Source of the DNA: Escherichia phage vB_EcoP_ShWW44
Sequence record: PQ900156.1
DNA: 64,000 nt
Direction: 5' to 3' (one strand)
The notes under the pieces were generated by a model, which saw only the letters and a list, made by a program, of their open reading frames with translations, searched no databases and was not told the origin of the DNA. How positions within the stretch are numbered: position 1 is the stretch's first letter; the number at the start of each line of letters is the position of its first letter. Shown piece by piece: positions 1-11,193 of this stretch. A program made the translations under genes and the position numbers.

Positions 1-48
1 TTGTAATGGCAGGATGGATAGCTTTTGCTATCTACTGTGTAAACAACT

Positions 49-77
49 AACCCTCTTAACGGAGGGTTTATTTTTTA
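49..77 (+). terminator. intrinsic terminator (hairpin + T-tract) ending the upstream gene outside the window
   Basis: Stem CCCTC/GAGGG with flanking A-T pairs, followed by TTTATTTTTT. Confidence 0.6.
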
Positions 78-123
78 CATGTCATGTATACTAATCCTGC
101 TATTTACTTATGAGGAAATTGAT

Positions 124-957
124 ATGCCAACTTTGAAAGTAGGTTTTAACAAAACCACTAATGTTGCAACTGTACTGGATGCAGGTGGTTCTATTCCAGG
201 TGGTTCCGTAGAAGTAGGTACTTTTGTACACCCGGATGCCACTTACCCTGATAGCTTAGTTATCTATCATGGAGTTCGTGATCTGTTGTATAAACGCTCT
301 GCTAAAAACCCTGCTGAAGAAGGCTTCTGGCCTAATAACATCGTGGATATGCAGTCTATCTCTATTGATATGAAAGCTACTCCACGACTGACTGTCGCTA
401 CCAAACTGTCTCGTGTAGTCTCCGCTATCGAAGGTGAAGACATTAACTGGCATGTTGATGTAGCAGGTGGTAAAGCACCATTTACTTATAAATGGCAATT
501 CAAAGTTGATACCGTTGGTGCAGCATTCGCTGATATTAGTTCCAGTACTAACCCATCTGCTGCTACTGCAACGCTGACTCTTAAAGACATAACAGCTGCT
601 TCTGCTGGTACTTATAAAGTGATTGTTACTGATGCTAATGGAACCACTGTAGAAGATGAGTCACTGCTGGCTGTAGGCTATTACGAAGCAAGCTCCCTGG
701 TAGCTACTCCTGCTTCACTGGCTCTGTCTGTTGCTGACGATCTTGCTGCTGGTAAAACCGTAACCATTGCTGCTATGCCTGTTGGTTCTTCTGCTGGTAC
801 TTTGTCTATCAAGACTGCTCCAGATTCTGCTCGTGCTACGGCTACCATTGCTGGTAACGTACTGACAGTTAAACCAGTGGCTGCTGGTGAAGCTACTTCT
901 GTAGTAGTTACCAATGGTACGGTCGATGTAACTATCCCTGTTACTGTTGCAGAATAA
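124..957 (+). CDS. Ig-like (Big_2-type) repeat protein, probable capsid decoration protein (N4 gp17-like by position)
   Basis: ORF track 79..957; start moved to ATG 124, which has GAGGA 8 nt upstream; Thr/Ala/Val-rich beta-repeat composition; lies first in the middle block as in N4. Confidence 0.55.
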   Translation: MPTLKVGFNKTTNVATVLDAGGSIPGGSVEVGTFVHPDATYPDSLVIYHGVRDLLYKRSAKNPAEEGFWPNNIVDMQSISIDMKATPRLTVATKLSRVVSAIEGEDINWHVDVAGGKAPFTYKWQFKVDTVGAAFADISSSTNPSAATATLTLKDITAASAGTYKVIVTDANGTTVEDESLLAVGYYEASSLVATPASLALSVADDLAAGKTVTIAAMPVGSSAGTLSIKTAPDSARATATIAGNVLTVKPVAAGEATSVVVTNGTVDVTIPVTVAE

Positions 958-979
958 GGGTATCCTTTTTTGGGGTTAT

Positions 980-1005
980 AGCCCTCCTTAGCGAGGGCTT
1001 TCTTG
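980..1005 (+). terminator. intrinsic terminator
   Basis: AGCCCTC-cttagc-GAGGGCT hairpin followed by TTTCTT. Confidence 0.6.
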
Positions 1006-1024
1006 TATCTATAGGAGAGTAAAA

Positions 1025-1339
1025 ATGGCGCAAAAATTGCGTGTATGGCACATTCCCCAAGTGCCAATGAAGGCATTTCAAGTAGAGACTAATAGTCTTC
1101 AGGAAGCTGTTAAGATTAAGAATGCGTTAGCAGATTATGATCTATTCCAATATGAGAACAATGTCAAAGGCGATTATGCTAATGCTAACGGTATTGAGAT
1201 GTGGGATGAGACTATCTCCGATCAAGAACTAGTGGAGATGGGTTTAGAAGACCGTTGGGTAGATTGGTATATTGAAACTGAAGATGGTTTCTTTGATGAC
1301 CCAGAAGAGTATCTGAATTATCTAATCAAGCAAGTATGA
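1025..1339 (+). CDS. hypothetical acidic protein (104 aa)
   Basis: ORF with AGGAGAG RBS; Asp/Glu-rich. Confidence 0.6.
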   Translation: MAQKLRVWHIPQVPMKAFQVETNSLQEAVKIKNALADYDLFQYENNVKGDYANANGIEMWDETISDQELVEMGLEDRWVDWYIETEDGFFDDPEEYLNYLIKQV

Positions 1340-1385
1340 TTGCTTTATTTGGGGTTATAAACCCTGAAATGAAACCCTCAAGTTT

Positions 1386-1415
1386 GACCTCCCTATTAAA
1401 GGGAGGTCTTTTTTT
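1386..1415 (+). terminator. intrinsic terminator
   Basis: GACCTCCC-tattaaa-GGGAGGTC hairpin followed by TTTTTTT. Confidence 0.7.
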
Positions 1416-1440
1416 GACTTAAACATTCTGGAGCCGGGAA

Positions 1441-1653
1441 ATGTATAAAGAGATTGCATTCTTCTCATTCTTACTTGGTGGTTTAATAGGTGCAGGATTT
1501 GTAGCTATTTCTAATACCTACTTTGGTTCTACTCCAAACTCTGTAACTCAAACCCTCAAGCATGAATGTGAATTGAATATCCCTCGTAATCAAAAATGTG
1601 TAATGCAGTTCGTACCGGAGAAAAATGAATATCCACAATCTACGTTTGGTTGA
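1441..1653 (+). CDS. small membrane protein (70 aa, one N-terminal TM helix)
   Basis: Hydrophobic segment FFSFLLGGLIGAGFVAI. Confidence 0.45.
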   Translation: MYKEIAFFSFLLGGLIGAGFVAISNTYFGSTPNSVTQTLKHECELNIPRNQKCVMQFVPEKNEYPQSTFG

Positions 1654-1885
1654 GAAACTGTATGAAGAATACAATGACAACCGACAGCAATTAGCTAGTT
1701 TGAAGAAGTCACCACATATGGTGAAAGTATCATTCAATGGTACGGATTTAGGACCGCAAGCCCGTACAAGAATACTTCCTGAACTACTGTCCTTTTATCA
1801 AAGGAGGGTTGCTGTTTTAGAGAAACGCTTTGAACATTTAGGTGTAGATTTATCACATCTTCCAGATGAAGGAGAAGATGAATGA
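1625..1885 (+). CDS. hypothetical protein (86 aa)
   Basis: ORF with GGAGAAAA RBS; 29-nt overlap with upstream ORF. Confidence 0.45.
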   Translation: MNIHNLRLVEKLYEEYNDNRQQLASLKKSPHMVKVSFNGTDLGPQARTRILPELLSFYQRRVAVLEKRFEHLGVDLSHLPDEGEDE

Positions 1886-2067
1886 AAGTAACCCAGTCCC
1901 AAGCAATCTTCCTTCGTATGGTTCAAGGTGGCTCTGCCACCAGCAACCGTAATAACAAAACCGCACAGTCCCTTAAGAAGCTGGGCTTAGTTCAGTTCAA
2001 TGCTGGTCTTGGGTGGTCATTAACCCTTATCGGTGTACTTAAACTCAATGAAATGAAAGGTAAATAA
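1882..2067 (+). CDS. hypothetical protein (61 aa)
   Basis: ATGA start/stop overlap with upstream ORF (translational coupling). Confidence 0.4.
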   Translation: MKVTQSQAIFLRMVQGGSATSNRNNKTAQSLKKLGLVQFNAGLGWSLTLIGVLKLNEMKGK

Positions 2068-2397
2068 ATGAAAACTTTACTTAAAGGTATTGCAGTAGCT
2101 GCGCTGATAGCTTTGGTTCCAAATGCACAAGCAGTTAAACCAGAACCAATTCTGGAAGGTGCTCAGGCTTACCTGGATGACACCCGTGATGCATTCGGAC
2201 AAGGGTTCTTCATGGGCAGTATGATCTCTTACATCGAGAACACAGATAACTGTGTACCGGATGGTATGAAGTATTCAGACATTCTGCCTAAGATTGCCAA
2301 AGTAGTTATTTATGACTCTGCAATCCTCAAATTGAAGAATACATCCCAAATTGTTGTGTACTCAGTACACAAGGCATATCCCTGCACCAAATCTTAA
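2068..2397 (+). CDS. secreted/periplasmic protein with N-terminal signal peptide
   Basis: MKTLLKGIAVAALIALVPNAQA has the n/h/c layout of a Sec signal with an AQA cleavage motif. Confidence 0.55.
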   Translation: MKTLLKGIAVAALIALVPNAQAVKPEPILEGAQAYLDDTRDAFGQGFFMGSMISYIENTDNCVPDGMKYSDILPKIAKVVIYDSAILKLKNTSQIVVYSVHKAYPCTKS

Positions 2398-2431
2398 TCA
2401 GTAATTCCATTAGCTTTAGGAGAGTAAGTAA

Positions 2432-3484
2432 ATGGCAAGCATCGACTCCTTGACCGTATGTAATACACGTCAAGCTCGTAACTTTATTATCCGTGCCCTT
2501 AGAGCAGGTAACGTACCGTTCCTGACTTCATCACCAGGAATGGGCAAATCTGCAATTATTCGTTCTGTTGCAGAAGAATTTGGTATGAAGCTGATAGACC
2601 ATCGTCTGTCTACTTCTGCCCCAGAAGATTTGTCTGGATTACCATTCCGTAATGGTGACCGTGCAGAGTTTATCCCATTCGCTGACCTATTCCCCATTGA
2701 AGGGGATGAAGTACCAGAAGGTTATAATGGTTGGCTCCTGTTCCTTGATGAGTTCCCGTCCGCTCGCAAAGAAGTAATAGCTGCTGCATACAAACTGATT
2801 CTAGACCGTATGACTGGTCAGAAAAAACTTCATCCTAACGTGATGATTGTCTGTGCTGGTAACAAAGCTACTGACCGTGCCATTGTTAACCCATTAGGTA
2901 CTGCAATGCAGTCTCGTGTGGTTCACTTTGAGATGGAACTTAACTTCGACATTTTTGTTGAAGACGTAATGATTCCTCAGCAATGGGATGAACGTCTGGT
3001 TGCATTCTTACATGCTAACCCTGGTTATCTGCATGACTTCGACCCAGCTCATAAGAACAAAACGTTCTGTTGTCCTCGTACTTGGGACTTTGTTAATAAA
3101 GACCTCAAGAACTTGCCAGAAGGTGCTCTGCCTGATGAGGATTCTATCTACTATGCAGGACACGTCACTGCTGGTAAGGCTACAGAGTTTGTTCAATTCA
3201 CTCAAGTATACAATCGTATGATTACGATTGAGAAGGTAGTTAAAGACCCACTGGGCTGTGCACTACCGGAGGATAACAACCTGTGCTGGGCTACTGTTAA
3301 CCATCTGGCTAACAAAACTACTGAAGAGAACTTTGCTGATGTTCTTCAGTACATTGAACGCTTTAAAACGTTCACCCATAAGATTCTGTACTTCCGTACA
3401 GTAGGCAATGCATTACCAGATCTTCTGGCTACCCCTGAATGGCGTAAGGCTGCTGCTAATATCTCTCGTTACATTCACGGATAA
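2432..3484 (+). CDS. MoxR-like AAA+ ATPase
   Basis: Walker A SSPGMGKSAI; Walker B LLFLDEF; AGGAGAG RBS. Confidence 0.7.
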   Translation: MASIDSLTVCNTRQARNFIIRALRAGNVPFLTSSPGMGKSAIIRSVAEEFGMKLIDHRLSTSAPEDLSGLPFRNGDRAEFIPFADLFPIEGDEVPEGYNGWLLFLDEFPSARKEVIAAAYKLILDRMTGQKKLHPNVMIVCAGNKATDRAIVNPLGTAMQSRVVHFEMELNFDIFVEDVMIPQQWDERLVAFLHANPGYLHDFDPAHKNKTFCCPRTWDFVNKDLKNLPEGALPDEDSIYYAGHVTAGKATEFVQFTQVYNRMITIEKVVKDPLGCALPEDNNLCWATVNHLANKTTEENFADVLQYIERFKTFTHKILYFRTVGNALPDLLATPEWRKAAANISRYIHG

Positions 3485-3491
3485 TCACAAC

Positions 3492-4667
3492 ATGAACCAA
3501 TTTCCTCAGCACACACTTAGTGATGAACAACTCATGCGTGAGTATGACCGTATTCAGGCTCAGGCGTTTCTCGGAGGCAGTGCTGCGTTCTTTGGTTCAT
3601 TACTGTGTAGTCTTAAATTCTCATGGAAACGCGAGGGTTGCCCCACTGCACGTACTGATGGGATAGAACTCCATTTCAATCCAGACTTCTTTATCTGGAT
3701 GTGTCCAGATGCAAGAGAAACAGTGCTTATGCATGAATTATGGCATGTGGCATATCTACATGACATTCGTCGTGGAAGACGTGACCCAGAAGTCTGGAAC
3801 CAGGCATGTGACCACTTCATTAACCTTCAGTTAGAAGAAGATGGCTACAAGTTCACTGGCATTGATAAAGGTATTTGCAAAGACCCTCAATATAAAGGAT
3901 GGGTCGAAGAAGACATCTACGATGACCTGATGAAGAACCCTCAGAAAAGGCAAAAGCCGTCGGGGGGTGCTGGAGCAGGTCTTGCTGGCGACATGAAATC
4001 CCCCACTTCGGGGCAGTCCCAGGGTGCTGTCGTCAACAACGTAGTACGTGCAATGCAGAGCCAGAAGATGGCTGGTGGACAGATGCCCGGTAAGGGTGCT
4101 GGTCGTATGGAAGAGGTTATTACCCAATTCCTTAAACCAGTAGTTCCCTGGCAGGAAGTTCTGATGAACTTCTTTACCGACATTGATGACACCCATTATA
4201 CGTGGGCCAGACCTAATCGTCGTTACACTGACATCTATCTACCTTCCCTGGAAGATGATGAAGGACGTTTACGTCACTTAGCATACTTTGAGGATGTATC
4301 TGGTTCTATTAGTGGTGCTGACTCTCTGCGTTTTAACTCAGAGGTTGCCTACGTTAAGAGCCAGTTCAATCCTAAGAAGATGTCCTTAATTACCTTCGAC
4401 GATATTATCCAAGAAGAGATGGACATCACTGAAGAAGATACTTTCGAAGAAATTAAGATTACAGGTCGTGGTGGTACAAACCTTGAACCAGTACGTGAAT
4501 GGATTATTAAGAATAAGCCAACCGCTGCAATCATATTCTCCGATATGTATGTTCGCCCAATGGAAGAATTGCCATTTGATATCCCTATCATCTGGTGTGT
4601 TCTAAATAATCCTAATGCTACCGTACCTTTTGGGGAGGTAGTTCATATCCCTAAAGGAATGAAATAA
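3492..4667 (+). CDS. VWA-domain protein with N-terminal HExxH metallopeptidase-like domain (partner of the AAA ATPase)
   Basis: HELWHVAYLH motif; start set to first ATG after the ATPase stop (track ORF begins at 3408 inside the ATPase gene). Confidence 0.6.
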   Translation: MNQFPQHTLSDEQLMREYDRIQAQAFLGGSAAFFGSLLCSLKFSWKREGCPTARTDGIELHFNPDFFIWMCPDARETVLMHELWHVAYLHDIRRGRRDPEVWNQACDHFINLQLEEDGYKFTGIDKGICKDPQYKGWVEEDIYDDLMKNPQKRQKPSGGAGAGLAGDMKSPTSGQSQGAVVNNVVRAMQSQKMAGGQMPGKGAGRMEEVITQFLKPVVPWQEVLMNFFTDIDDTHYTWARPNRRYTDIYLPSLEDDEGRLRHLAYFEDVSGSISGADSLRFNSEVAYVKSQFNPKKMSLITFDDIIQEEMDITEEDTFEEIKITGRGGTNLEPVREWIIKNKPTAAIIFSDMYVRPMEELPFDIPIIWCVLNNPNATVPFGEVVHIPKGMK

Positions 4668-5173
4668 TGGTTGTTAATGGTAATTCCCTGTATCGTTCAT
4701 CTCAACTGCTGGATGTCCCAGACCGTAAGGTATCTAAACACGGTGTAAGCTATGGATTGGGGGAAGCTGGTTATGATATTCGCATCAAACAAGATATTAC
4801 CTTCTATCGCTTATTTGGGTTGATTCCAATGGTGAAAGTCGTTGATGGAAATCAAGTATCACGCCATCTCGGTAAGTTCACATTGGCTTCAGCAATTGAG
4901 AAGTTCAACATGTCCCCATCCTGTGTAGCCATCGTTCACGATAAGTCTACTTGGGCAAGACGTGCATTATCTGTATTCAATACCGTAATAGAACCAGGAT
5001 GGAAAGGGTATTTGACTCTTGAACTGGTCTATCATGGTCGTAAGAAATTGCATATCCCGGCTGGTTCTGGGATAGCTCAAGTATTATTTCATCTGGTTCA
5101 GGAACCTGCTAATTACAATGGCAAGTACATGAACCAGGAAAACCAACCAGTAGCTGCAAGAAGCAGTAAATAA
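4667..5173 (+). CDS. dcd: dCTP deaminase / dUTPase-fold protein
   Basis: KSTWARRALSVFNTVIEPGWKGYLTLEL resembles the dCTP deaminase core; TAATG overlap with upstream gene. Confidence 0.6.
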   Translation: MVVNGNSLYRSSQLLDVPDRKVSKHGVSYGLGEAGYDIRIKQDITFYRLFGLIPMVKVVDGNQVSRHLGKFTLASAIEKFNMSPSCVAIVHDKSTWARRALSVFNTVIEPGWKGYLTLELVYHGRKKLHIPAGSGIAQVLFHLVQEPANYNGKYMNQENQPVAARSSK

Positions 5174-5182
5174 GGAAAACTC

Positions 5183-5392
5183 ATGTCAGTATTTCAAGTA
5201 ACTAATGCAACCTCAAATGTACGTGTAACCATTAATGCTGCAAACGTGATTGCAGTGGAACTGATTCCACTGTCTGATTGTGCACGTATCACATTCGTAA
5301 ATGATGGTGCTATGGAAACCAAAGAAACCTATCGTTCTGTGCGTAATTATCTGAAGAAAGCTCTTGCTCCAGCAAGTAAAGATGCTGAGTAA
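5183..5392 (+). CDS. hypothetical protein (69 aa)
   Basis: ORF only. Confidence 0.4.
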   Translation: MSVFQVTNATSNVRVTINAANVIAVELIPLSDCARITFVNDGAMETKETYRSVRNYLKKALAPASKDAE

Positions 5393-5406
5393 GTAGCTGC
5401 CTAGAT

Positions 5407-5430
5407 AGCCCAACTATGTTGGGCTATTTG
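5407..5430 (+). terminator. probable intrinsic terminator
   Basis: AGCCCAAC/GTTGGGCT hairpin followed by ATTTG. Confidence 0.45.
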
Positions 5431-5465
5431 CGAAGAAACTAACTCAACCCCACATAGGAACCATC

Positions 5466-5717
5466 ATGGAATCTTTAGCAGCAATCCTTGTACTGTTGTT
5501 TGTATTAGCCGTATACCTTATCCCTACTATCATTGCTTTTGCACGAGGTCATGCCTCTAAGTGGGGTATTGGTGTGCTTAATATCGTATTAGGCTGGTCA
5601 CTGGTATTTTGGGTAGTAGCACTTATTTGGGCACTGTCTAATAAAGGAACTACAATCGTTAACGTTGGCAGTGGTAACCAGTACAACGTGTCTCAAACGA
5701 GCAGCAAAGCAGAGTAA
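5466..5717 (+). CDS. superinfection-immunity (Imm)-like two-TM membrane protein
   Basis: 83 aa, two TM helices; LIPTIIAFARGH...LNIVLGWSLVFWVVALIWAL resembles the Imm family pattern. Confidence 0.6.
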   Translation: MESLAAILVLLFVLAVYLIPTIIAFARGHASKWGIGVLNIVLGWSLVFWVVALIWALSNKGTTIVNVGSGNQYNVSQTSSKAE

Positions 5718-5790
5718 CTAATCTAAGCATCATTAATAGGGTGCTTGTGGAAGTTACTTCCAGCTCATTGCTTATCCATCTCCTAACCCA

Positions 5791-5816
5791 AGCCCACCTA
5801 ACCCGTGGGCTTTTTT
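5791..5816 (+). terminator. intrinsic terminator
   Basis: AGCCCAC-ctaaccc-GTGGGCT followed by TTTTTT. Confidence 0.65.
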
Positions 5817-5862
5817 AATTACAGGTACTTCTTATGACAAACAGACGAATGGTAAGTCTATC

Positions 5863-6211
5863 TTGTATGGGCTGGACTTAAGTAAGCTAGAACAAACAGC
5901 AATGCTTACTTTAGGTAAAACTATCCATGACCAAGTGGAGAATGAAAATGTATTAGATCTTTACACAACAATGCAGGTTCTTGTTCAAAAAGATGGACTA
6001 CTAGCAGACCTTTTCCTTCATACATTCCCCCAGAACCGCATCTGAAATCTAAGGTAGACCGTATCATAGATAAGTTCTGGCTTAGCCCGTGTTATGACGA
6101 AATGCATCTTTACTTGGCTCAAATACAAAAGAATCCTTATACCAAAGATGTATTTAAGGGTAAGAGTACTACTCACCACTACCCCTGGTATAGAAGAGGT
6201 AGCAAATACTA
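5863..6211 (+). pseudogene. possibly frameshifted gene: ORF 5863..6045 continues in another frame to 6211
   Basis: Frame of 5863..6045 stops at 6043-6045; an ATG-less open frame runs 5946..6211 and ends overlapping the next start; homopolymer CCCCC at about 6026-6030 lies in the overlap. Confidence 0.3.
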
Positions 6212-6655
6212 ATGCGTATCCCATTCCTGAGAAAAAGGGAACGAAATCCTGTTCTTTACAATAAAGGCATAGAGGATGAGTATGAACTCAATCGTAAAGC
6301 TCGTTCCTACACAACAGAATTATTCATAGGGACTAGAAATCCTGATAGATTATTGGACTTTGTTTTTGAACAAGTCTTTATCATATACAGATTAGCTATG
6401 ACTGCTGGTTCACAAGAAGTGGGTGATAAGGCAAGACATGCTCTCTGTATGCTCCGTAAAGAGTATGAAGCCCTCATGTATGAAGACTTGTACTCCTTTA
6501 AAGAAGAAACCGCTGTAGCGTGTTCTGTGGCTCTTACTGAAGGTGTAGCAGTATTACAAGAACTACCTCGTAGTGAGTTTAAGCTGGTATACGCTCAGGT
6601 TAAGAGAATCACAGAGACGAGAAGTGGTATCACTAACTATCTAAGGTCATTCTAA
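6212..6655 (+). CDS. hypothetical protein (147 aa)
   Basis: ORF; stop overlaps thyX-like start. Confidence 0.55.
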   Translation: MRIPFLRKRERNPVLYNKGIEDEYELNRKARSYTTELFIGTRNPDRLLDFVFEQVFIIYRLAMTAGSQEVGDKARHALCMLRKEYEALMYEDLYSFKEETAVACSVALTEGVAVLQELPRSEFKLVYAQVKRITETRSGITNYLRSF

Positions 6656-7599
6656 TGATTAAGGCATCAGTTATTGCAGATTCCGTTCATCCAGAAACAG
6701 GAACTCGTATCACAACCTTTGAATTGGTTTATCCCCGATTCATTCACAGTGAATTTATGACTCACCGTGTATTCAACCGTAATGCTTCAAGTAGCCGTGC
6801 TATTCCTACTTCTAAATTAATTGAACAGGTTCGTAATGAACCAGTGATGCCAAGTCACTGGGGCAAGAACCAGAAAGGTATGCAAGCAGAAGAAGAACTC
6901 ACTCCTATGGAGATTGAGGATGCTAAGTTTATCTGGGATAACGCTGCATCTGCTGCTGCTGTGTACGCTGAACAGCTACGTCGTGGACAAGTACATAAGC
7001 AAATTGTTAACCGTATTCTGGAACCCTTCACACATATCCGTGTAGTAGTAACTTCAACTAGCTGGGCTAATTTCTATGGACTGCGTGACCACAAAGATGC
7101 ACAACCAGAGATTCGTGAACTGGCTCAAGCAATGCGTAAGGCACATGAAGAAAGCACACCAAGAGCATTACCGTATGGGCATTGGCATTTGCCATATATT
7201 GCTCATATTGACCGTGTTGGGGCTTACAATTTCTGCAAACGTAATCGAGTTACACGCGATGAACCAAGTGATGCAGAAGTATATGGCTTACTTCTCAAAG
7301 TAAGTGCTGCACGCTGTGCTCGTGCTTCTTATAACAACTTTGAAGGACGACCTTCTACTATCGAAGAAGACCTTGGCTTATTCGCTAAGTTAGTAGAAAA
7401 CCAACCTATTCATGCTTCACCAACGGAACATCAGGCTACGCCTATGAACCTTGGTGAAAAATATGTGAATAACATGAACCCAGTTACATGGGAACAAGGT
7501 GTTACATCCATGGATAAAGAAGGGAATCTGTACTCAGGTAACCTGCTCCACTTTATCCAATTCCGTAAATTAATTCCTGGTGAGACTATTACTGAATGA
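6655..7599 (+). CDS. thyX: flavin-dependent thymidylate synthase (ThyX)-like
   Basis: FMTHRVFNRNASSSRAIP fits the ThyX (R)HR-x7-S...R signature. Confidence 0.5.
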   Translation: MIKASVIADSVHPETGTRITTFELVYPRFIHSEFMTHRVFNRNASSSRAIPTSKLIEQVRNEPVMPSHWGKNQKGMQAEEELTPMEIEDAKFIWDNAASAAAVYAEQLRRGQVHKQIVNRILEPFTHIRVVVTSTSWANFYGLRDHKDAQPEIRELAQAMRKAHEESTPRALPYGHWHLPYIAHIDRVGAYNFCKRNRVTRDEPSDAEVYGLLLKVSAARCARASYNNFEGRPSTIEEDLGLFAKLVENQPIHASPTEHQATPMNLGEKYVNNMNPVTWEQGVTSMDKEGNLYSGNLLHFIQFRKLIPGETITE

Positions 7600-7834
7600 A
7601 AAACTAGCTCTATACGCAATGCTAATTAGTACCCTACTAACACTGACCTACGCATACAAAGTTGCCTTTGTCGTAGAAACAGATATGCAGTTCATTCGAG
7701 CTAGTATTCTGTTCTTTGTAAGTGAAATTGGTTTGTGGTGTATCTACTACTTTGCTCGTGACTACGAAGCAATTCGTGAGCAGGAAGAAGTAAAAAGACA
7801 AATGATACGATTTGTAGAACAAAATCGTAAGTAA
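7580..7834 (+). CDS. small membrane protein (84 aa, two TM)
   Basis: Hydrophobic segments LALYAMLISTLLTLTYAY and ILFFVSEIGLWCIYYF. Confidence 0.45.
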   Translation: MRLLLNEKLALYAMLISTLLTLTYAYKVAFVVETDMQFIRASILFFVSEIGLWCIYYFARDYEAIREQEEVKRQMIRFVEQNRK

Positions 7835-7839
7835 ACCTA

Positions 7840-7866
7840 AGACCTCCTCCGGGAGGTCTTTTTTTG
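7840..7866 (+). terminator. intrinsic terminator
   Basis: GACCTCC-tccg-GGAGGTC followed by TTTTTTT. Confidence 0.7.
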
Positions 7867-7894
7867 GTTTCAATTAACTCTTTCAGGAGGGCAT

Positions 7895-8107
7895 ATGCCT
7901 GCTAAATACCGTATCAAAGACACACCAGTAATGTGTGAAGGTGAGAAGGGTGACATTGTATATGCCTGTATTCAGGATGATTTCAATGCTGCTCTTATGT
8001 TAACCCAAATGACAAATACACTGCATGTATCAGTAACACTGGATCCTACTGGTGACTATCCATGCTTTCCTATTCCTGCCCATAACCTGGAGCAAATCCA
8101 TGATTAA
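7895..8107 (+). CDS. hypothetical protein (70 aa)
   Basis: ORF with GGAGGG RBS. Confidence 0.5.
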   Translation: MPAKYRIKDTPVMCEGEKGDIVYACIQDDFNAALMLTQMTNTLHVSVTLDPTGDYPCFPIPAHNLEQIHD

Positions 8108-8414
8108 CCCTGAAGTAATTCATAGTAAAACCGGTAAGGCTGTCCCACTTAGTGAGATTGCAGTTACAGGTGATATTGCTGCTTGTCCTGCAAATATCGC
8201 TTCCCTCTGTATGTGCATTGCCGCACTGGCAGAAGAACGTAAGTTATGGTTGGAACCAAGCAAGGAAATGATTCAGGCTGGTTTGGCTGAAGTAAAAACA
8301 CGTCTGAGAGAACTGGATGAAGAGAACGGCCCACTCCTTGGACCAACTGATAAACAAATATCAGATATGGCTGTGTTTGTATTGCAAGCAATGGCAGGTA
8401 AACGCAATGGCTAA
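8099..8414 (+). CDS. hypothetical protein (about 105 aa)
   Basis: Start trimmed to ATG overlapping upstream stop (ATGATTAA). Confidence 0.45.
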
Positions 8415-8598
8415 TGTAAATATCGCCTCAGAGAAAACGTATAGCATTCAGATTAACGGTTTAACCGAATATCAGGTCTTATTCCTAATGAATGCTTTTC
8501 AAAATAGTCCTGTAGGTCACCATCCTAATGATGAACCACGGGAAGAAGCTGAACTTCGTAAAGCTATTTTTGATAAGTGTAAACAAGTTCTAATGTAA
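8407..8598 (+). CDS. hypothetical protein (about 63 aa)
   Basis: Start trimmed to ATG overlapping upstream stop (ATGGCTAA). Confidence 0.4.
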   Translation: MANVNIASEKTYSIQINGLTEYQVLFLMNAFQNSPVGHHPNDEPREEAELRKAIFDKCKQVLM

Positions 8599-8625
8599 GC
8601 AACATTTAATCTGGAGAGTAAATAA

Positions 8626-11193
8626 ATGTTAGTTGCAGATACCAATGAAGTAGCTACCTCAGCGACACTGGGTGGCAAAGAAACAATTGCCTTTGGCATC
8701 TCTGATGACCCGGCATTCTTTCGCGTATTAAGTACTTCCCTGTATAACAATCCTACTCTGGCAGTAGTCCGTGAGACTATCTGTAACAGTTGGGATGCTC
8801 ATATTGAAGCAGGTAAAACTGATACTCCTATTCGTATCACCATTGATACAGACAACTTTATTACCTTCCGTGACTACGGTAATGGGATCCCGGATGAACT
8901 CATTGGTTCCATTTATGGTGTCTATGGTGCATCTACCAAGAAGTCCAACAGTAGTGTTACTGGTGGCTTTGGTCTGGGATGTAAATCCCCATTCGCTTAT
9001 ACAGATAGCTTCCAGGTTACTTCATGGAACCAAGGAAAGATGTCGGTATATAACGTAGCTAAGGCTGCGATTGAGAATGATGGTAAGCCGGGCATTGTTC
9101 CTATTGTTACCAATATTCCTACTGAGGAATCTGGTCTGGAAGTTAAATTCCAGTTAGGTAAACATGATGTAAATACCTTTGTGCATTACATCACATCAAT
9201 CGTATTTAACGGTGAGATTAAAGCTGAACTTAGCATTCCTAAACTAGTTAAAACAGAAGCAGGCAATAGTATTCAGCAAGGTAACTACACTTTACTGAAT
9301 ACATTGGGTATGTCATTTGAACCTGGTTCATATGATATGTCTGATAGCTGGTATCAGGGTTATATGGGTAACAGTAACATATTCGTTCGTTACGGTAACG
9401 TAATGTACCCCATAGTATCCAGCCCGGCTAGTGAAGAAGCTGTGGGCCTTATCCTCAACTTCATGAATATTATCGGTGCTGATAATTTAGTAGTTCAGGC
9501 TGCACCAGACACCTTAGCTATTGCTCCTAGTCGAGAAACGCTGTCTAACCAGAAGTTAACCGACGATGGTATTACTACTCTATGTGTAGATTTAGCAGAC
9601 CGTATGGAGAAAGAGATTAAGGCTAAGATTCCTGAAGCTATTAAACAGGTTGAAGAATACGCCTCCAAATCCTCTACTCGCTTCTGGGAATATCCATCAT
9701 TCCTGGGTGCTGTTACAGACAGAACTGTTCAACGCTATATGTCCTCTAGTTTGTGGGCTAAGCAACGTAAGCATTACATCAAGCACTGGCGTAACTTATC
9801 CAATAAGGCATTATTAGCTCGTCCTGAATATGCAGGTCTTAAAAAACTGTATGGTAAGGCTATGCGTGCTCTTAAGGATACTCGTGAAGAAAGTACATAC
9901 TCCCCATTCTCGGAATTAGTATATCGCCATCTGCACTTACCTCAGCTTGCTGCTTTAAAACCTACTGGTATTAAGTGGTCTGGTTACATAATGAATCAAG
10001 GTAACCGTGTTGACTTGGTAAAAGGTAAACTTACTGACTACTTTAGGATATACAATAACTCCCACCAAAGTATTGGCATATTCACTACCAAGAATGTTGT
10101 AGTTACCCGACGTTTATCTGATTGTGCAGACTCTTTCTCATACTTCCCTGAATACAACCGAGGTGACCTGGAGCGTACAGCTTTTGTTCACGTCGTTGGT
10201 CCTAAGAAAGGTGCAGCAGAAGAAGCTGTAGCTAAGTTCACTGCTATGGGTTATCAGGTAATTGACCTTACTCAATACAATGAGTGGGACAAACCAACTA
10301 ACTTCCGCAGAGAACAGGCTAAGTTAGTTGCTGAGAAACGTGCTAAGACAATAGCTGCTAATAAAACCAAAGCAGGAGGTAAAACTAATGCTCTGATTTC
10401 ATTGAATGCAGTTCTTGGTGCTACCCAGGTGCGGAATAAAAATGGAGATTGGGAACCCAAGCCGTATATTCAGAAAGAATTTGCTGACCCAAGCCGTCAT
10501 GAGAAATATGGTTTCGTTGAGGTAGAGAAGCCTAAGTACTACGTACTAGCCAATCAGGTTGGTTCTGGTAGTCCTGTAACTGCCAGAATTGGAACTATGT
10601 GGAAATGGTATGAGTTATCTGATGAGATGAGAGCAGAGACTGTTGTCTGCCGTAATCAAATCGAAGCTAACAAGGCCAAACGGAGAGGTGCTATCCACAT
10701 TGATGATGTTCGCTTTATGGAGCTGATGCCAGTTATTACCAGTAAAGGCTTCAAGAAATATGTTACTGAACACCGTATTGGTATTCTGGAATACGTAGGA
10801 CTGGATGACAGGGAATACTGGGAAATCCTCGACATACTGGGTCTAACATTCAAACCATTACAGAATCTGATTTTTAAACCAGAGTATGAATGGGCATATG
10901 AATTTCTACGGAATCGTCTACTCAACAACAAAGAAAAACTTGTTGAAATGGGTTGTATTAAGTCAGTGGATGACTTAGAGCCATATGCAATAATGACTAA
11001 TCCGCGTAATCATAAGTACTTTAAAATACTTAATGATTACAAAGAATTATTCAGTTATAGCTGGAATAAAAATGACATCCTACAGACGCTGGACTTAGGT
11101 AGTTTGGTCAAACACCTTAAGAAGAATCCAGAGGATATTCCTGGGTTTAAGTCCCTCTACCGTAATCGTCTAAATAAACTGAAAGGTAACTAA
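8626..11193 (+). CDS. rIIA: rIIA-like protein with N-terminal GHKL-type ATPase fold
   Basis: N-box ETICNSWDAHIEAG, G1 DYGNGIPDE, G2 TGGFGLGCKS; 855 aa; followed by a second large gene as in rIIA-rIIB pairs. Confidence 0.6.
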   Translation: MLVADTNEVATSATLGGKETIAFGISDDPAFFRVLSTSLYNNPTLAVVRETICNSWDAHIEAGKTDTPIRITIDTDNFITFRDYGNGIPDELIGSIYGVYGASTKKSNSSVTGGFGLGCKSPFAYTDSFQVTSWNQGKMSVYNVAKAAIENDGKPGIVPIVTNIPTEESGLEVKFQLGKHDVNTFVHYITSIVFNGEIKAELSIPKLVKTEAGNSIQQGNYTLLNTLGMSFEPGSYDMSDSWYQGYMGNSNIFVRYGNVMYPIVSSPASEEAVGLILNFMNIIGADNLVVQAAPDTLAIAPSRETLSNQKLTDDGITTLCVDLADRMEKEIKAKIPEAIKQVEEYASKSSTRFWEYPSFLGAVTDRTVQRYMSSSLWAKQRKHYIKHWRNLSNKALLARPEYAGLKKLYGKAMRALKDTREESTYSPFSELVYRHLHLPQLAALKPTGIKWSGYIMNQGNRVDLVKGKLTDYFRIYNNSHQSIGIFTTKNVVVTRRLSDCADSFSYFPEYNRGDLERTAFVHVVGPKKGAAEEAVAKFTAMGYQVIDLTQYNEWDKPTNFRREQAKLVAEKRAKTIAANKTKAGGKTNALISLNAVLGATQVRNKNGDWEPKPYIQKEFADPSRHEKYGFVEVEKPKYYVLANQVGSGSPVTARIGTMWKWYELSDEMRAETVVCRNQIEANKAKRRGAIHIDDVRFMELMPVITSKGFKKYVTEHRIGILEYVGLDDREYWEILDILGLTFKPLQNLIFKPEYEWAYEFLRNRLLNNKEKLVEMGCIKSVDDLEPYAIMTNPRNHKYFKILNDYKELFSYSWNKNDILQTLDLGSLVKHLKKNPEDIPGFKSLYRNRLNKLKGN

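Follow-up and report, generated by a model that had tools for sequence, protein, structure and literature searches.

The question raised by positions 2432-4667 of the DNA analysed here, a stretch of 64,000 nucleotides of Escherichia phage vB_EcoP_ShWW44 (record PQ900156.1; the window, in what follows), is what two adjacent genes do together in the infected cell, one encoding an ATPase of the AAA+ superfamily and the other a protein that joins a zincin-like metallopeptidase domain to a von Willebrand factor A-like (VWA) domain. The pair is already known. It corresponds to gp24 and gp25 of phage N4, the latter a member of the DUF2201 family, and its architecture was described for jumbo phages in 2021. 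The 14 core genes of N4-like phages include both, and in N4 the two are transcribed in the middle phase (PMC4193335). Their homologues in the first roseophage genomes were entered under 'putative ATPase, AAA superfamily' and 'vWFA super-family', the function being listed as unknown (PMC2784036). For the group 2.2 jumbo phages, Iyer et al. described a MoxR AAA+ ATPase with a metallopeptidase-vWA cochaperone and proposed, by analogy with the tails of Acidianus two-tailed virus, a virion-assembly chaperone with peptidolytic processing (PMC7824862).

The pair is among the few universally conserved gene sets of the Schitoviridae, and it recurs in other large virulent phage lineages and in conjugative elements. 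To identify its client would close one of the few gaps left in the N4 core set, and would reveal whether a dedicated protease can be driven by a MoxR ATPase. The domain identities of the two proteins are clear from the results below, and their genes are tightly linked across phages and plasmids. As to molecular mechanism, gp24 and gp25 probably form a two-protein, ATP-dependent machine for remodelling and proteolysis. That the clients of this machine are the element's own newly made multi-protein assemblies, which it would help to assemble, mature or keep under quality control, is a proposal that we make more tentatively.

A divergent MoxR/dynein-related ATPase

A preliminary description of the locus, drawn from the letters of the sequence, had noticed a Walker A/B AAA+ ATPase followed by a protein with an HELWH motif and a VWA-like region. 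Both open reading frames (ORFs) do lie on the + strand between 2432 and 4667, and profiles, predicted structure and motif conservation agree on the AAA and HExxH-VWA domains. The features of the first gene, whose ATG is preceded by an AGGAG ribosome-binding site, are as follows (pLDDT, the predicted local distance difference test score, refers to the AlphaFold2 model):

2432-3484, + strand: gp24-like gene for a MoxR/dynein-related AAA+ ATPase, orthologue of N4 gp24 (ATG at 2432, stop at 3482-3484, 350 amino acids)
2528-2551, + strand: Walker A or P-loop, S33-S40 (SSPGMGKS), read from the sequence; G38, K39 and S40 invariant
2594-2647, + strand: motif IDHRLSTSAPEDLSGLPF, residues 55-72, after beta2, the presumed helix-2-insert region; aligns with the midasin/MoxR segment 'RINLSDQTDLMDLFG'
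2735-2752, + strand: Walker B, L102-E107 (LLFLDE), on model strand 100-106; D106 and E107 invariant
2861-2917, + strand: candidate sensor-1 residue N144, at the end of beta4, and R162, candidate arginine finger in a MoxR-like 'A-x-Q-S-R'; both invariant
2945-3478, + strand: C-terminal all-helical domain, residues 172-349, of eleven helices with pLDDT mostly 89-95

Invariance refers here to an alignment of 50 gp24 homologues (50-97% identity), in which residues 55-100 are very conserved throughout. The Walker A (GxxxxGK[ST]) and Walker B (hhhhDE) signatures lie on a P-loop alpha/beta core in the model (pLDDT 86.7, predicted template modelling score 0.81), and the protein matches Pfam AAA (E=3e-5) and PHROG 1297 'ATPase' (E=6e-133). 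Between beta2 and beta3 the model has extra short strands and the highly conserved residues 59-99, with pLDDT below 50 at residues 65-71; D56, R58, P64, D66, G69 and P71 of motif IDHRLSTSAPEDLSGLPF are invariant. Further on, a strand pair (131-133 and 137-144) comes ahead of sensor 1, N144 ends strand 137-144, and R162 comes just before strand 163-168; the roles of both residues are assigned by analogy.

The preliminary description had called the ATPase MoxR-type, which is right for the family, whereas the window protein itself reaches neither the Pfam AAA_5 cut-off of 22 bits (it scores 14.6) nor the bpMoxR cut-off of 27 (13.1). Full-length orthologues do pass the AAA_5 cut-off, namely those of Pseudomonas jumbo phage Ettore (24.0 bits), Synechocystis plasmid pSYSA (25.3) and Thermus plasmid pTHEOS01 (33.0), and all three align to the gp24 profile with hhalign E values of 1e-32 to 4e-35; the two plasmid proteins carry the NCBI name 'MoxR family ATPase'. 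The sole relative in PDB by sequence is midasin, a weak match (E 0.017 with the single sequence, 0.0016 with a profile) that spans the P-loop and the stretch following beta2, in which 'IDHRLSTSAPEDLSGLP' stands opposite 'RINLSDQTDLMDLFG'. By predicted fold, gp24 is nearest to dynein, CbbQ, NorQ and midasin, at 13-17% identity to the solved proteins. The midasin match, the fold neighbours and the orthologues that pass AAA_5 thus place gp24 with the MoxR/dynein-related ATPases at family level; its closest neighbours are MoxR, midasin and dynein modules, and its gene is paired with a VWA gene. The helical C-terminal domain is longer than a standard AAA+ lid and is kept full-length in the plasmid orthologue (hhalign E 5.5e-31, 324 columns). 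gp24 is, then, a divergent subfamily of the MoxR/dynein-related class with an unusually long helical C-terminal domain.

A zincin-like domain joined to a VWA domain

The longest ORF of the second gene opens at 3408, and the real start is the ATG at 3492, in agreement with the annotation of Escherichia phage St11Ph5. Conservation was followed in two alignments, one of 52 N4-like sequences (A2) and one of nine diverse sequences, 24-62% identical (A3), which come from N4-like phages, Ettore, the Rak2-like jumbo phage PBECO4, an rV5-like phage, two plasmids and an N4-like 'plasmid'. The features are:

3492-4667, + strand: gp25-like gene for a zincin-like metallopeptidase plus VWA protein, orthologue of N4 gp25 (391 amino acids; Pfam DUF2201_N and DUF2201)
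3732-3761, + strand: HExxHxxxxH, H81-E82-L-W-H85-V-A-Y-L-H90 (HELWH at residues 81-85), conserved in A2 and A3
3798-3824, + strand: N103-x-A105-C106-D107-x-x-I110-N111 on the next helix, invariant in A3; candidate third or fourth metal ligand or active-site wall
4128-4247, + strand: linker motif, residues 213-252, FLKPVVPW...W-x-RPNRR-x4-YLPS, between peptidase and VWA; highly conserved, pLDDT 42-59
4278-4649, + strand: VWA domain, residues 263-386, with a complete metal-ion-dependent adhesion site (MIDAS), D268-x-S270-x-S272, T329 and D351

The N-terminal half matches DUF2201_N, a putative metallopeptidase family (E=4e-55, 187.7 bits, residues 17-253), and the C-terminal half the VWA-like DUF2201 (E=1e-34, residues 263-386). 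In the AlphaFold2 model (pLDDT 77.7) strands 42-45, 53-55 and 59-62 are followed by helix 72-87, which bears H81, E82 and H85, and H90 begins a short helix, 90-93. Three short strands and then a helix with HExxH is the layout of a zincin, and H90 and D107 are the conserved candidates for the third ligand; an alpha/beta domain follows at the C-terminal side. H81, E82, H85, N103, A105 and D107 are invariant in A2 and H90 nearly so (at least 90%), and in A3 all of these, H90 included, are invariant. Weak matches to Peptidase_M48 fall on the HExxH helix in six of the nine diverse members, and three to four of the nine match VWA, VWA_2 or VWA_CoxE. Neither sequence and profile searches of PDB nor the fold lists gave a solved relative of the peptidase domain.

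The C-terminal half has a Rossmann-like VWA fold in the predicted structure, with the VWA domain of NorD among its closest solved relatives. The MIDAS residues, D268-V-S270-G-S272, T329 (in GGT) and D351 (in FSD), are invariant in both alignments and make up a complete putative metal site. Few parts of the family are as conserved as the linker, in phages and plasmids alike: L214, W220, W238, R243, R244, Y249 and P251 are invariant in A2, and P216, P241 and P251 in A3. It may serve for docking or as a pseudo-substrate. Down to about 24% identity, no catalytic or metal-binding residue of the pair varies; these motifs are intact and under strong purifying selection. Scans with NCBIfam gave no match for either protein, and neither matched a PADLOC defence model at E<=0.01.

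Tight linkage across phages

The window belongs to an N4-like phage of the genus Gamaleyavirus (Schitoviridae): its positions 2000-5200 are 94% identical in nucleotides to St11Ph5, and likewise to about 55 other G7C-like phages. The RefSeq record of St11Ph5 annotates the pair as 'gp24' (the ATPase) and 'gp25', in N4 numbering. Of the 80 IMG/VR loci in which a gp25 homologue was found (38-97% identity), 78 carry a homologue of gp24 upstream of it in the same orientation, and the remaining two have no sequence on that side; a dCTP deaminase gene comes after gp25 in most of the 80. Phage records found by tblastn number 808 for gp24 and 735 for gp25, with nearly the same counts by genus, and identity to the Enquatrovirus-type proteins is about 60-62%. 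With a profile of the gp25 family, 21,544 representatives of clusters formed at 50% identity were found at E<=1e-3. Among the best 150, the majority align over essentially the full length of the two-domain profile; a few are truncated or carry insertions. When the N4-like alignment was searched against genome contigs, the matches were N4-like sequences only, some of them in metagenome-assembled genomes (MAGs) or large bacterial contigs, with no cellular DUF2201 genes; A3 was too divergent to serve as a search pattern against viral contigs.

Beyond the N4-like phages the arrangement varies. In PBECO4 the two genes are adjacent, with structural genes adjoining and DprA among the neighbours, and in Ettore and CB7 a homing endonuclease gene stands between them. 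The PBECO4 and Ettore ATPases align to gp24 with hhalign E values of 1.9e-30 and 4.1e-35, and their partners have DUF2201_N plus DUF2201. The T4-like cyanophage S-TIM61 has overlapping pair genes, with an Hsp20 gene directly upstream and ThyX 1.5 kb downstream:

L102:3506-3940 and 7649-8320: Hsp20 and thymidylate synthase neighbours in S-TIM61

In rV5-like phages the pair is divergently arranged and about 4 kb apart; ORF11, just upstream of the gp25 homologue there, was considered and is not the ATPase.

Three bacterial records drew attention on their own account. A contig of Mesorhizobium yinganensis CN2-181 (contig2, 727 kb, 434974-448110; L004) contains a syntenic N4-like block, and a Roseococcus MAG contig of 297 kb (L003) likewise; the blocks include gp24, gp25, dCTP deaminase, thyX and further N4-like genes, and each is either an integrated element or an assembly artefact. 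N4-like phages are regarded as strictly lytic, and an integrated element would be unexpected. The third, the circular Acinetobacter baumannii 'plasmid' pRBH2-3 (75,126 bp; L015), carries an N4-like RNA polymerase, a gp24-like ATPase and a gp25-like protein, and is probably a phage genome deposited as a plasmid.

The pair on plasmids and integrative elements

The presence of the module on conjugative elements, which the preliminary description had missed, is seen here on plasmids and on integrative and conjugative elements (ICEs). Plasmid records number 134 for gp24 and 108 for gp25, with matching counts by genus. Large conjugative plasmids and ICEs of the MOBH/MPF_T type in Burkholderia and Paraburkholderia, and the Rhodovastum plasmid RHOApb, which is typed as non-mobilizable, share a cassette of three genes, for the gp24-like ATPase, a conserved protein of about 300 amino acids and the DUF2201 protein:

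L013:3888-7158, L014:3946-7176, L016:7938-11209 and L017:7917-11272: three-gene cassette

On the Burkholderia plasmid and in the B. mayonis ICE the cassette is immediately upstream of a trbB/virB operon for a type IV secretion system (T4SS), and in the latter it also adjoins an E2/JAB/E1 cluster. The middle protein of the cassette shows 32% identity between Burkholderia and Rhodovastum and matches no Pfam family; no counterpart of it was found in the window. A further homologue search, seeded with the Burkholderia plasmid protein, returned Burkholderiaceae only.

The two genes are adjacent on pSYSA, among toxin-antitoxin genes and DUF262, on pTHEOS01, between genes for RecQ-like and UvrD-like helicases, and on linear plasmids of Rhodococcus, where Lsr2 is a neighbour; a toprim/DUF3991 protein and ParB are found in one other plasmid context. 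A search for a shared third component or client found no mutual similarity among the other neighbours in rV5-like phages, Thermus, Rhodococcus, Acinetobacter, PBECO4 and Synechocystis.

Probable introns, inteins and the HNH label

The gp24 gene is uninterrupted in the window; in several relatives (L030, L099, L058 and L035) insertions 0.8-0.9 kb long break it up. By residue number, conserved motifs hold the sites 66/67 and 67/68, both inside motif IDHRLSTSAPEDLSGLPF, and 119/120; insertion is also seen at about 201-223. The insertion examined, L030:6273-7142 in a pSb-1-like phage, has an HNH-type endonuclease ORF inside; the downstream gp24 exon has no start codon, and the match to the Rfam group I intron is below threshold (26.8 bits, E 1.6e-4). 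These insertions are probably self-splicing introns. Two gp25 homologues (P0371 and P0364) have inteins exactly between A105 and C106 of the NxACD motif (3806/3807 in the window), which begin with Cys and end in VVHN, with C106 as the +1 residue; P0371 matches Pfam Intein_splicing at 43.2 bits. Elements that home usually choose conserved sites in genes of importance, and the presence of such elements in the most conserved motifs of gp24 and gp25 therefore suggests that both motifs matter for function.

The same relatives bear on the name under which gp25 is commonly found. PHROG 1314 and many RefSeq phage records label it an HNH (homing) endonuclease, and this database label is the sole support for such a function, to which we give practically no credence. 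Pfam gives only DUF2201_N and DUF2201, and no HNH-type family matches any of the nine diverse members even at E<=5. The C-terminal half has the VWA fold, the gene, unlike homing endonucleases, belongs to the core, keeps its synteny and is inherited vertically, and the genuine HNH endonuclease ORFs are separate insertions beside or inside gp24 in relatives. The label of PHROG 1314, passed on to many RefSeq records, is a systematic annotation error; present in hundreds of phage records, it can mislead automated annotation as well as counts of homing endonucleases.

Neighbourhood and transcription unit

In St11Ph5 the pair is flanked by genes for RNAP2, a Hoc-like decoration protein, a superinfection-exclusion protein, dCTP deaminase (gp26) and the thymidylate synthase ThyX (gp30), and Pfam shows these neighbours in the window too. 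The features around the pair are:

1386-1408, + strand: strong terminator-like hairpin upstream (9-bp stem, 6 GC pairs, T7 tail), probable start boundary of the gp24-gp25-gp26 unit
4667-5173, + strand: dCTP deaminase gene, gp26 (Pfam DCD 9e-16), coupled to gp25 by TAATG; a syntenic neighbour, not claimed as a part of the machine
5790-5812, + strand: strong terminator-like hairpin downstream (8-bp stem, 5 GC pairs, T-rich tail), probable end of the gp24-gp25-gp26 unit
6655-7599: thyX, in the window

From the gp24 stop to the gp25 start there are 7 nucleotides, and the gp25 stop (4665-4667) overlaps the ATG of the dCTP deaminase gene. Terminator-like sites are enriched relative to shuffled sequence (10 against 4.1 +/- 2.0), and the two hairpins probably bracket a transcription unit of 4.4 kb with four small ORFs, gp24, gp25, gp26 and two further small ORFs. 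The Hoc-like capsid decoration gene is about 1.5 kb upstream of gp24, with four small ORFs in between. In three unrelated lineages, the window, PBECO4 (L011:6961-7890) and S-TIM61, a thymidylate synthase gene lies at most about 2.5 kb downstream of the pair. The preliminary description had spoken of a replication block; the block is an N4-type middle region, where nucleotide metabolism is indeed represented, but together with capsid decoration and superinfection exclusion. An Rfam search of positions 1-9000 found no structured RNA. A scan for sigma-70 promoters gave fewer sites than shuffled sequence and is uninformative on promoters, the middle promoters of N4 being of another type.

One of the small products deserves mention apart from the pair. 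At 2068-2397 (+ strand) a protein of 109 amino acids with a signal-peptide-like N-terminus has a weak, sub-threshold similarity to the Rap1a/Tai4-type immunity proteins of type VI secretion systems in Pfam (E 0.004, 18 bits against a cut-off of 27.7), and one related phage record names the product 'tai4 protein'.

A proposed mechanism and its rivals

The machine that we consider probable would be made in the middle phase of infection and could work as follows. gp24 would assemble as a MoxR-type AAA+ ring and gp25 would be its dedicated adaptor, in physical contact with it. The VWA domain of gp25 would grip an acidic residue of the client through its MIDAS and dock on the ring, as in CbbO-CbbQ, NorD-NorQ and the MIDAS and ring of midasin; ring, adaptor and client binding are all modelled on the behaviour of these MoxR-VWA systems. 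ATP hydrolysis would pull on the client or loosen it, and the tethered zincin domain, presumed to be an active peptidase because its catalytic glutamate is invariant, would then cut the client or gp25 itself. The pair would thus amount to a split, MIDAS-guided analogue of the AAA+ metalloproteases of the FtsH type. In phages its clients could be components of the virion or tail, and in conjugative elements those of the type IV secretion apparatus. The preliminary description had read the pair as a chaperone or remodelling module, a reasonable reading that matches the published prediction for jumbo phages (PMC7824862).

We favour clients among the element's own assemblies because of the core-gene status of the pair, the Hsp20 gene of S-TIM61, the structural genes in the neighbourhood, the adjacency to T4SS genes in ICEs and the published analogy. 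Several points weigh against this explanation. The pair is in a middle-phase unit with dCTP deaminase, near thyX and outside the late structural block; no secretion or assembly genes are annotated within 6-7 kb on each side of it on pSYSA, pTHEOS01 and the linear plasmids of Rhodococcus; and no experimental study of any gp24/gp25 or DUF2201 family member was found in the literature. Since the module spans podoviruses to conjugative elements, a purely virion-specific role is weakened, and since it occurs on plasmids without nearby assembly genes, a purely virion-directed role cannot be general. In the partial virion proteome of KP8, mass-spectrometry coverage includes neither protein, which is neutral for a chaperone.

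The main rival, in our judgement somewhat unlikely, keeps the machine and changes the client: it would degrade or dismantle a conserved bacterial protein, such as a defence factor, a nucleoid or DNA-bound protein or a quality-control protease, in the service of takeover or anti-defence and not of self-assembly. Expression of the pair before the late genes would suit such a role (PMC4193335). The module is found in at least five virulent phage lineages and on conjugative plasmids, ICEs and large plasmids, for which the host cell is the common factor, and some plasmid neighbourhoods are of a conflict type (toxin-antitoxin genes and DUF262 on pSYSA, E2/JAB/E1 in the Burkholderia ICE). Zincin peptidases, ArdC among them, serve anti-restriction on plasmids. 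Yet anti-defence genes are usually patchy and fast-evolving, whereas this core pair is retained universally and has diverged slowly and apparently by vertical descent in phages of hosts from Escherichia to Rhizobium to Synechococcus; the defence models of PADLOC did not recognise it, and no candidate target emerged. A broader form of the idea, which we find rather unlikely, would see here a hitherto unrecognised class of split AAA+ metalloproteases, each a MoxR ring with a MIDAS-guided, VWA-tethered zincin, that hits one universal bacterial or DNA-bound target and not virion parts. If it were true, two of the 14 core genes of the Schitoviridae would be a conserved host-manipulation or DNA-clearing protease, and virulent phages, conjugative plasmids and ICEs would have the split metalloprotease in common as a tool.

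Two further explanations take their cue from the neighbours. Co-transcription and translational coupling with dCTP deaminase, together with the recurrent thymidylate synthase gene, could mean that the pair is a non-proteolytic maturation factor for a DNA or nucleotide enzyme or a replisome part, with HExxH as a metal-binding or regulatory module; NorQD, CoxDE, CbbQO and CobST, which act in activation or cofactor loading, would be the models, and the nearest solved relatives (CbbQ, NorQ and the VWA domain of NorD) are enzyme activators. We consider this improbable, as the invariant catalytic glutamate of HExxH and the invariant motifs around it point to catalysis, and the plasmid copies have no nucleotide-metabolism neighbours. 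Neither dCTP deaminase nor ThyX is known to depend on the insertion of a metal centre. In eukaryotes, Wss1/Spartan and Cdc48, a small zincin and an AAA+ ATPase, clear DNA-protein adducts, and a phage and plasmid counterpart of that system would remove topoisomerases, relaxases and other proteins stuck on DNA. The compact HExxHxxxxH recalls SprT/WLM, one member has a very weak SprT-like match (E 0.28), and RecQ-like and UvrD-like helicases, toprim/DUF3991, ParB, Lsr2 and DprA are among the neighbours of the pair. We hold this to be very improbable: the proteins have no DNA-binding domain and no significant SprT/WLM match, the recurrent weak match is to M48, the contexts are heterogeneous, and the idea is pure inference. 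The reading that we retain is the remodelling and proteolytic machine, with the element's own assemblies as its tentative clients.

Relation to known systems

The N4 proteins gp24 and gp25 are direct orthologues of those in the window, in the same order, on the same strand and with the same neighbours (dCTP deaminase and thyX), and there is no substantive difference between the two cases. The jumbo-phage pair has the same two-gene architecture, and the proteins of PBECO4 and Ettore are full-length homologues of the window's; the pair is treated there as a jumbo-phage feature (PMC7824862), whereas here it is found also in 70-kb podoviruses, rV5-like myoviruses, a cyanomyovirus and conjugative elements. 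The plasmid cassette shares a full-length ATPase orthologue, the invariant DUF2201 motifs and the gene order, and differs by the extra gene of about 300 amino acids between the ATPase and the DUF2201 protein and by its place directly upstream of a T4SS operon.

Among cellular systems the comparison is with MoxR-VWA pairs, namely CbbQ-CbbO (Rubisco activase), NorQ-NorD (maturation of NO reductase), RavA-ViaA and CoxD-CoxE, and with the AAA ring and MIDAS domain of midasin. We know of no characterised cellular MoxR-VWA pair in which a zincin domain is fused to the VWA protein. Compared with cellular MoxR proteins, gp24 has a long, family-specific helical C-terminus and scores under the Pfam AAA_5 and AAA_3 thresholds. 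Acidianus two-tailed virus, as far as the papers that cite it describe it, uses a MoxR ATPase and a VWA protein for tail development (PMC7824862, PMC7159879). The likeness, which is one of description only, is that of a virus-encoded MoxR-VWA pair with a proposed role in the assembly of a virion structure, and the difference is that this is an archaeal virus whose pair, by the account in PMC7824862, has no peptidase domain.

Proteases of the FtsH and Lon type resemble the proposed machine, by analogy and not by membership, in coupling an ATP-driven ring to a protease (a zinc HExxH enzyme in the case of FtsH). To our knowledge, threading of substrates has not been described for the MoxR class. 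In FtsH and Lon, ATPase and protease are one polypeptide and the substrate is threaded through the pore, whereas gp24 and gp25 are two proteins, and the choice of substrate would pass through the MIDAS.

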